The notes: a model not told the origin generated them from the sequence alone. Numbered from the stretch's first letter, positions 3,627 to 4,184 are shown. The stretch is DNA of 64,000 nt from Escherichia coli (GCF_024502345.1 NZ_JALDNN010000001.1), one strand, 5' to 3'. A program made the numbers and translations.

Positions 3627-4184
3627 TTAACTGAAGACAAATTAGTTGACATGTTATTTATCACCACCCTAACTGGATTAACTGACAAGTGGTTCTATAA
3701 ATTAATTAAAGATGGTGAATTTCCAAAACCTATTAAGCTAGGGAGAAGTTCTCGCTGGTTACAGAGTGAAGTTGAAAATTGGTTAAGAGAACGAGTTAAA
3801 GCATCGCGAAGCTGAAATGAAATTACGCCCATGCCCCCAATCGGACTGCATGTTTATATCATAAATATCATTATATAACCCACATGTTAACTTCGGAGTA
3901 AAAATAAATGATCACCAGCTAATAAAATCACACCTTGCATGACACGCATTAAAATTAACGCCCCGGATTGGTAATATATACAACAATATACAACGCATCC
4001 AACCATCAACACACTCATCCATTGCAAGTATATAAACAACAATAGTCAATACACTCTGCACATATACACGCCCCCACAAATCAAACTAACAAGCATTCAA
4101 ATCAAAACCATAAATCACCATTTAATTACCTCATCAACCCAAGGTAAGAAACAACCCTAGATACTATACAGACAATAGGAATTT

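Follow-up and report, generated by a model that had tools for sequence, protein, structure and literature searches.

Between alpA and the yfjJ-like gene of an Escherichia coli genomic island lies a tract of nearly G-free, A/C-rich DNA. Its composition is a real feature, and statistically an extreme one, of the 64-kb stretch analysed here (the window). The tract is most likely the ~200-nt 5′ untranslated leader of the yfjJ-like gene. We tentatively favour, while stopping short of calling it probable, that this leader lets Rho load and attenuates yfjJ and the co-oriented island genes downstream of it, Rho being the reader that we infer. As to its class, the tract is probably a further case of a known kind, namely a G-poor untranslated leader that is a candidate rut site.

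The 191 nt of 3950-4140 consist of A82 C56 G12 T41. Over all 190-nt windows of the 64 kb the mean is 46.2 G (sd 11.1), the lowest count (11 G) is found at 3972, and 12 or fewer G per 190 nt occur only at 3947-4177. Strong G depletion at about 3950-4140, the core of the original prediction, is thus borne out by the minimum of G in the whole window. The longest G-free run anywhere in the window (49 nt) is located at 4094-4142. The binomial probability of 12 or fewer G is 3e-6 with p(G) set to half of the local G+C and 3e-8 with the 68 G+C divided evenly, and in 100 shuffles of the island part the count stayed at 18 G or more per 190 nt. The skew is of the amino/keto and not of the purine/pyrimidine type (A+C 138/191, purines 94/191). 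A+C per 190 nt peaks at 3980 with 142, which is ~5.4 sd over the 64-kb mean of 96.3 (sd 8.5). The label C/A-rich, also given earlier, holds insofar as this is the region of the A+C maximum, but A (43%) outweighs C (29%), with G at 6% and A+C together at 72%. As C at 29% compares with a whole-window average of 25%, the bias is mostly a loss of G and a gain of A.

Windowed C>G skew, which had been proposed as a check, gave a clear signal. A 78-nt C-minus-G bubble of +22 to +24 in the tract belongs to the top 0.1% of windows on both strands, and 78-nt windows inside the tract are as extreme as C26 G2. A few other sites equal this bubble, but the tract sustains the skew far longer (~190 nt), with C/G = 4.75 over 195 nt (C57 G12). 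Elsewhere in the window, other G-free runs of 40-47 nt are found among 55968-56056 (+), 41698-41743 (+) and 23920-23959 (+), a 78-nt bubble with C37/G6 at 48899-48976 (-), and a T-poor segment with 12 T in 190 nt at 60746-60940. The natural limits of the tract were set from just past block 2, a conserved promoter-like element, to the ribosome-binding site of the gene at 4185 (Table 1).

Folding predictions leave the RNA of the tract with almost no pairs. The predicted minimum free energy (MFE) of 3984-4143 (160 nt) is -5.1 kcal/mol, a weaker fold than in all 320 sampled 160-nt windows (mean -42.4 kcal/mol) and in GC-matched windows (-29.1, sd 6.6 kcal/mol), while -27.5 kcal/mol is predicted for the antisense RNA. 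The single NTG triplet of the tract is a TTG at 4022-4024, which has no Shine-Dalgarno motif. On reading the sequence, neither ATG nor GTG was found in the leader and no GGAG-type motif before 4177, and no + strand ORF was found in 3978-4184. Given the start site proposed below, the leader would be ribosome-free and unable to recruit ribosomes internally. Since A and C cannot pair, and since every start codon and Shine-Dalgarno sequence needs G, a G-less leader of A, C and U is the simplest route to a long, naked RNA free of ribosomes.

Block 2 has the form of an extended -10 element (TGGTAATAT; TG at 3969-3970, TAATAT at 3972-3977) with a -35-like TTAAAA ahead of it at 3949-3954, and it is kept from E. 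coli to Catenovulum and Vibrio. At the position of block 2 in the K-12 paralog yagK, a constitutive promoter (TTTAGA-16-TATAAT) was documented by genomic SELEX of RNA polymerase with sigma-70 and was flagged as H-NS bound (PMC3946193). In the window, transcription from this promoter-like element would start at ~3984. The only sigma-70 consensus match in 3500-5200 lies further upstream (Table 1) and is not conserved in the relatives. The tract is downstream of either candidate promoter and upstream of the AGGA and ATG, and it would therefore constitute a leader of ~200 nt.

The island adjoins tRNA-Thr(CGT) and proBA. A copy of IS5, flanked by a TTAA duplication (2428-2431 and 3627-3630), is inserted in alpA after codon 7. 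The first seven codons (2411-2431) are thereby cut off from the remainder of the gene, and IS5 also separates the tract from the native alpA promoter region. In the relative L001, alpA is intact (68 aa) and its alignment to the window starts at 3627. Because IS5 splits the gene, the AlpA regulator is probably inactive in this strain. AlpA resembles TorI and the AlpA-family structures 1z4h and 8c3t, which is an excisionase-type match (E ~1e-4). Pseudomonas aeruginosa AlpA (PMC7969949) prompted the idea of a Q-like antiterminator acting on the tract. This was rejected in view of the excisionase-type match and the split gene; in the structure comparison of AlpA no antiterminator AlpA chain appeared at E<=1.

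The tract fills most of the 369-bp gap between alpA and the 4185-4799 gene. From its fold and motifs, the YfjJ-like protein is predicted to be an HUH Rep-type nuclease. By hhalign, its SHYHMVLFVN aligns with PHWHMMLFCN of phage P2 gpA, and its YFAKERTK resembles P2 YIAKYISK. The HUH motif pairing with P2 gpA suggests that the gene served by the leader encodes a Rep-type nuclease. In a preprint, genes of the yfjJ type and alpA are listed among those that a widespread class of transducible genomic islands often carries and that probably belong to its core (10.1101/2024.08.29.610337).

Table 1. Features of the tract and its surroundings (positions counted from the first nucleotide of the window).
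Feature	Position	Strand	Basis or remark
IS5 copy	2432-3626	-	transposase ORF 2578-3558; IS5 inverted repeats
AlpA-family HTH gene, 3′ part	3627-3815	+	Pfam PF05930, E 5e-10
Block 1, TAACTTCGGAGTA (conserved form TAACTTCRGAGTA)	3888-3900	+	candidate nick or operator site
Sigma-70 consensus match ATCACA-17-TAAAAT	3927-3955	+	9/12 matches; alternative start upstream of tract
Block 2, CGGATTGGTAATAT (conserved form CGGRTWGGTAWTAT)	3964-3977	+	promoter-like
Internal duplication, ATATATACAACAATATACAA and ATATAAACAACAATAGTCAA	3974-3993 and 4030-4049	+	
10-nt tandem ATATACAACA x1.9	3976-3994	+	TRF
G-depleted A/C-rich tract, taken as untranslated leader	3978-4177	+	composition; RNA MFE; start and Shine-Dalgarno signals
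Eroded GC-rich hairpin remnant (TTACGGGTAAGGCTTTGCCCTGCCCGTAA in relatives)	4140-4165	+	alignments, pair counts
Shine-Dalgarno-like AGGA and ATG	4177-4180 and 4185-4187	+	sequence read, ORF list
YagK/YfjJ-family ('inovirus Gp2 family') gene, 204 codons	4185-4799	+	served by leader

The best-known enterobacterial reader of long, naked, ribosome-free RNA is Rho. Together with NusG, Rho silences horizontally acquired, AT-rich, H-NS-bound DNA (e.g., PMC6797219). The RNA of rut sites has been described as unstructured, ribosome-free and G-poor, with C exceeding G, over at least 70-80 nt (PMC6407284). Loading of Rho is favoured here because Rho prefers unstructured, ribosome-free, G-poor RNA and silences AT-rich acquired DNA. 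Like the rut regions of long leaders and of H-NS-silenced DNA, the tract is at least 80 nt long and G-poor, has C>G (C57 G12 over 195 nt; C26 G2 over 78 nt) and lies in the leader of an island gene. It is also predicted to be unpaired (-5.1 vs -42 and -29 kcal/mol) and, if transcription starts where proposed, untranslated. It differs from them in its main base, A, in the lack of C enrichment and in the irregular spacing of C. The YC dimers (24 in 167 nt) match the expectation from composition, and nowhere in 3940-4260 do six C follow one another at gaps of 11-13 nt, the pattern used by RhoTermPredict, although 17% of all 78-nt windows pass both RhoTermPredict criteria. The rut signature in the original prediction therefore stands as regards the C/G ratio of 4.75, the predicted lack of structure, the missing Shine-Dalgarno and start signals and the sense orientation of the leader; it does not extend to C content, dominated as the tract is by A, or to YC dimers and the six-C pattern. 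A rut site is a reasonable working model, from which one formal feature, C-richness with spaced C/YC dimers, is missing.

According to this working model, rightward transcription from block 2 would yield a ~200-nt leader of the Rep-type gene. The near-total loss of G would make it an unfolded RNA of A, C and some U, lacking a Shine-Dalgarno sequence and essentially lacking a start codon, which would come off RNA polymerase naked. Rho, probably with NusG in the AT-rich, H-NS-type DNA of the island, would load on this leader and terminate a fraction of the transcripts near or just inside the yfjJ start. Expression of the nuclease and of the co-oriented genes downstream would stay low as long as the RNA is not shielded by the initiation of translation or by some other factor. 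Intrinsic terminators were not found in the intergenic region around the tract. In the relatives, a GC-rich hairpin before the ribosome-binding site covaries and could act as a pause site; in the window it is eroded.

A role as translation enhancer or standby platform is a close rival of Rho loading, and the physical properties of the tract fit both equally. An unstructured A/C-rich leader would bind the 30S subunit via S1 and thereby boost initiation, the ribosome-binding site itself being of middling quality (AGGA with a spacer of 4 nt); in a variant of this proposal, the tract could be a target for G/U-rich small RNAs. The omega leader of TMV, which is G-less and CAA-rich, is an enhancer in E. 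coli. C/A-rich, ACA-containing upstream elements and unstructured 5′ tails have been reported as enhancers of enterobacterial translation (PMC3879156, PMC5934652). Like the C/A-rich enhancers and standby leaders (GcvB-targeted elements, ACA motifs, TMV omega), the tract is dominated by A and C (43% and 29%, 72% together), depleted of G (6%), unpaired by prediction and immediately 5′ of the Shine-Dalgarno motif. It differs in being several times longer, ~200 nt against the tens of nucleotides of known enhancers. In addition, neither ACA, CAA, AAC nor any other trinucleotide exceeds the expectation from composition in the window and eight other lineages. A GcvB target or sponge, considered by analogy with the C/A-rich GcvB targets, was rejected since the predicted duplex of GcvB R1 with the tract (-21.6 kcal/mol) is no better than with random 200-nt windows (mean -22.7 kcal/mol). 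Moreover, the ribosome-binding site is not sequestered here, so that a standby site is not obviously needed. On balance, we consider a role in promoting initiation rather unlikely.

Homologous leaders were compared in 38 genome contigs, several assemblies, K-12 yfjJ and yagK, and the matches of a DNA-pattern scan of metagenomes. The scan gave 46 matches, 19 with and 27 without a YfjJ homolog downstream; the latter are mostly chance matches, two of them being real loci that are interrupted or cut at the end (L062, L096). Six metagenome leaders were taken too long owing to a wrong start codon, which leaves the sign of C>G unaffected. Three E. coli genomes carry the exact tract and 30 carry its G3/10-type variant; model strains are not among them, and no match was found in plasmid or phage collections. 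The homologous leaders are 48-270 nt long and poorly alignable. Even the G3/10-type E. coli leader aligns with the window only in patches, the genes being 85% identical. None of the 17 genome lineages has more G than C (one is a tie), with a median C/G of ~1.8 and the window as the extreme at 4.75, and C exceeds G in 19 of 19 metagenome loci. Upstream of the homologs the median count is 24 G per 160 nt, while it is 32 for 129 control upstream regions taken from these loci (Mann-Whitney p = 1e-4). The leaders of L013/L048, L025, L026 and L021, which are unalignable and belong to proteins of 37-57% identity, have independently come down to 7-13 G per 150 nt. From these comparisons, G-poverty is most likely maintained in the leaders of a family of island Rep-like genes.

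The same comparisons bear on the alternative that the tract has no dedicated function and is a weakly constrained spacer, grown by duplications of a G-poor, promoter-proximal seed whose composition it inherited. The internal duplication at 3974-4049 appears, from the sequence, to be the way in which the leader grew in the lineage of the window. Together with the 10-nt tandem and a ~45-nt insertion relative to the G3/10-type leader in the alignment, it speaks for such growth. Leader length varies freely among the homologs, and the leaders of K-12 yfjJ and yagK have C/G of 1.6 and 1.2 and no such tract; as these leaders function without it, the tract is not essential to the gene family. Changes in copy number or length are also seen at short range: L048 has two copies, and L051 a single one, of a 24-nt unit that directly follows block 2, and the match in E. 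coli CX12 and CX08 is ~25 nt longer than the query. A third strain, A30, matches only from query position 82. On the other side, the repeats make up a small share of the tract and explain little of it, k-mer repetition being marginal (P 0.03-0.05). An iteron or tandem-repeat array was likewise rejected, as TRF gave only the 10-nt unit x1.9. Furthermore, neutral drift should restore G, yet G-poverty recurs in the unalignable leaders of the diverged proteins, and in the lineage of the window even an ancestral GC-rich hairpin has been stripped of its G residues. A spacer of no function is, in our estimate, likewise rather unlikely.

The hairpin in question is located ~60 to 25 nt before the yfjJ start in L004-L012, L020 and metagenome loci. 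In the relatives, 88.8% of the cells are paired vs at most 50% with the partner slid, three pairs are changed on both sides, and G.U intermediates are kept that pair only on the + strand. The hairpin is partly eroded in the G3/10-type leader and mostly unpaired in the row of the window; the G-less stretch is longer in the window lineage because this ancestral hairpin decayed. It is an argument for a structured cis-regulatory leader or small RNA, the alternative that the original prediction had offered, to which an antisense hydrophobic peptide may be added from the minus-strand ORFs (69 aa as predicted by gene callers in the G3/10-type leader, 51 aa and 55 aa in the window). Such readings are very improbable for the tract itself, in which the hairpin is eroded and 160 nt fold with only -5.1 kcal/mol. 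An Rfam scan of 3400-5200 and of the leader of the relative L007 gave no match at E<0.5, and neither a conserved structure nor a covariance match of the Rfam type was obtained for the tract; the region between blocks 1 and 2 has no consensus structure either. A small hydrophobic protein encoded on the G/T-rich strand was rejected since neither the frame nor the length nor the sequence of the ORFs is constant in 15 lineages.

In the Vibrio loci (L030 2440-2830; also L023, L031 and L032), the yfjJ leader is short and ~400 nt upstream of it are T/G-rich on the yfjJ strand. The opposite strand is thus A/C-rich and G-poor, with A79 C35 G11 T35 per 160 nt, and is the sense leader of an abutting, unrelated divergent gene that has no Pfam match. 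As the Vibrio skew follows the abutting gene, and as the G.U pairs of the hairpin form on the + strand only, the comparisons point to a strand-specific property of the sense RNA and not to a double-stranded DNA motif. This has a bearing on a mutational origin of the amino/keto skew as well. Deamination of an exposed strand, be it the transcribed sense strand or a displaced one, enriches G+T on that strand. The + strand should then have gained G+T, the reverse of what is observed, and in Vibrio the skew follows the sense strand of the abutting gene; a deamination origin is judged unlikely.

The neighbourhood of the HUH nuclease gene raises one more possibility, in which the tract is a DNA element of a rolling-circle type origin for this nuclease, either as binding-site repeats or as the first displaced single strand, beside a nick site in block 1. 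Block 1 is exact or near-exact in most Enterobacterales homolog loci and has TCGGAGT in common with the nick site that is annotated for gpA at the ori of phage P2 (gcgccTCGGAGTcctg). Blocks 1 and 2, compared in homolog loci L002-L029 and L052, are 76-78 bp apart in most Enterobacterales, whatever the upstream neighbour. The sequence of the spacer between them is not conserved, and a structured RNA at this place was rejected as RNAalifold gave no pairs. The fixed spacing with a variable spacer devoid of RNA structure suggests a DNA-protein architecture. In pMV158, the nic and bind loci of RepB are 84 bp apart (PMC1851628), and in the present loci short AACAATAT-like motifs recur after block 2. 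The likeness to HUH Rep origins (P2 gpA ori, pMV158 nic and bind) thus consists of the HUH Rep-like neighbour with its predicted fold and motifs, the nick heptamer of block 1, and block 2 ~77 bp away. The difference is that these features are upstream of the tract and not inside it: block 1 (3888-3900) is outside, it is a single copy with no second one found in the window, and neither a nick site nor Rep-binding repeats were found within the tract. The tract has no conserved motif and marginal repetition, varies freely in length and sequence, and is dispensable in the paralogs, being absent from K-12 yfjJ. In Vibrio, the asymmetric tract flanks block 2 on its opposite side and belongs to the opposite strand, and deamination of a displaced + strand would leave it rich in G+T, the opposite of the observed composition. 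Nicking and replication by YfjJ are themselves hypothetical. A role of the tract in an origin is improbable.

The surroundings of the tract may nevertheless be the more novel lead. Rho entry at the tract would add to a known kind of leader, whereas a conserved cis-module around a previously uncharacterised HUH nuclease is more intriguing. In its most complete form, which we likewise regard as improbable, block 1, the 77-bp spacer, block 2, the leader and the YfjJ nuclease would make up a self-sufficient module for rolling-circle initiation or for mobilisation in AlpA-type islands, most of which are defence islands. The G-less leader would then be an integral control, a Rho-gated switch that holds the nuclease off until the island is induced, or else a deliberately unstructured first segment of the displaced strand. 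The YagK/YfjJ genes are probably core genes of very widespread integrase/AlpA islands, often with phage-defence cargo. If the tract is a Rho entry site, it would show in a concrete case how a Rep-type nuclease that may be dangerous is silenced in these islands, and it would indicate that selection can act on base composition (no G) and not on sequence. Otherwise, the tract is just an unusual spacer, and the value of the analysis lies in the map of the promoter-like block, the candidate nick site and the hairpin.

Three further observations concern the flanks of alpA and yfjJ. The segment 2115-2192 (-) is the leader of a divergent 304-codon gene (1104-2018, -); it is pyrimidine-rich and G-poor (C28 G7, 23 YC dimers in 78 nt) and its composition comes closer to a classical rut site than that of the tract does. 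The divergent promoter region contains an operator-like palindrome, ATAACAACCGGTTGTTAT (2328-2345), and a half-site, AATAACAACCGG (2388-2399), both shortly before the alpA start. At 5035-5071, in the gap that separates yfjJ from the WYL/HTH gene at 5105, there is an inverted repeat with perfect arms of 16 bp and a loop of 5 nt, CCAGTCGCTACTGACA tgccc TGTCAGTAGCGACTGG; no T-run follows it, and it is a possible operator or RNA hairpin.
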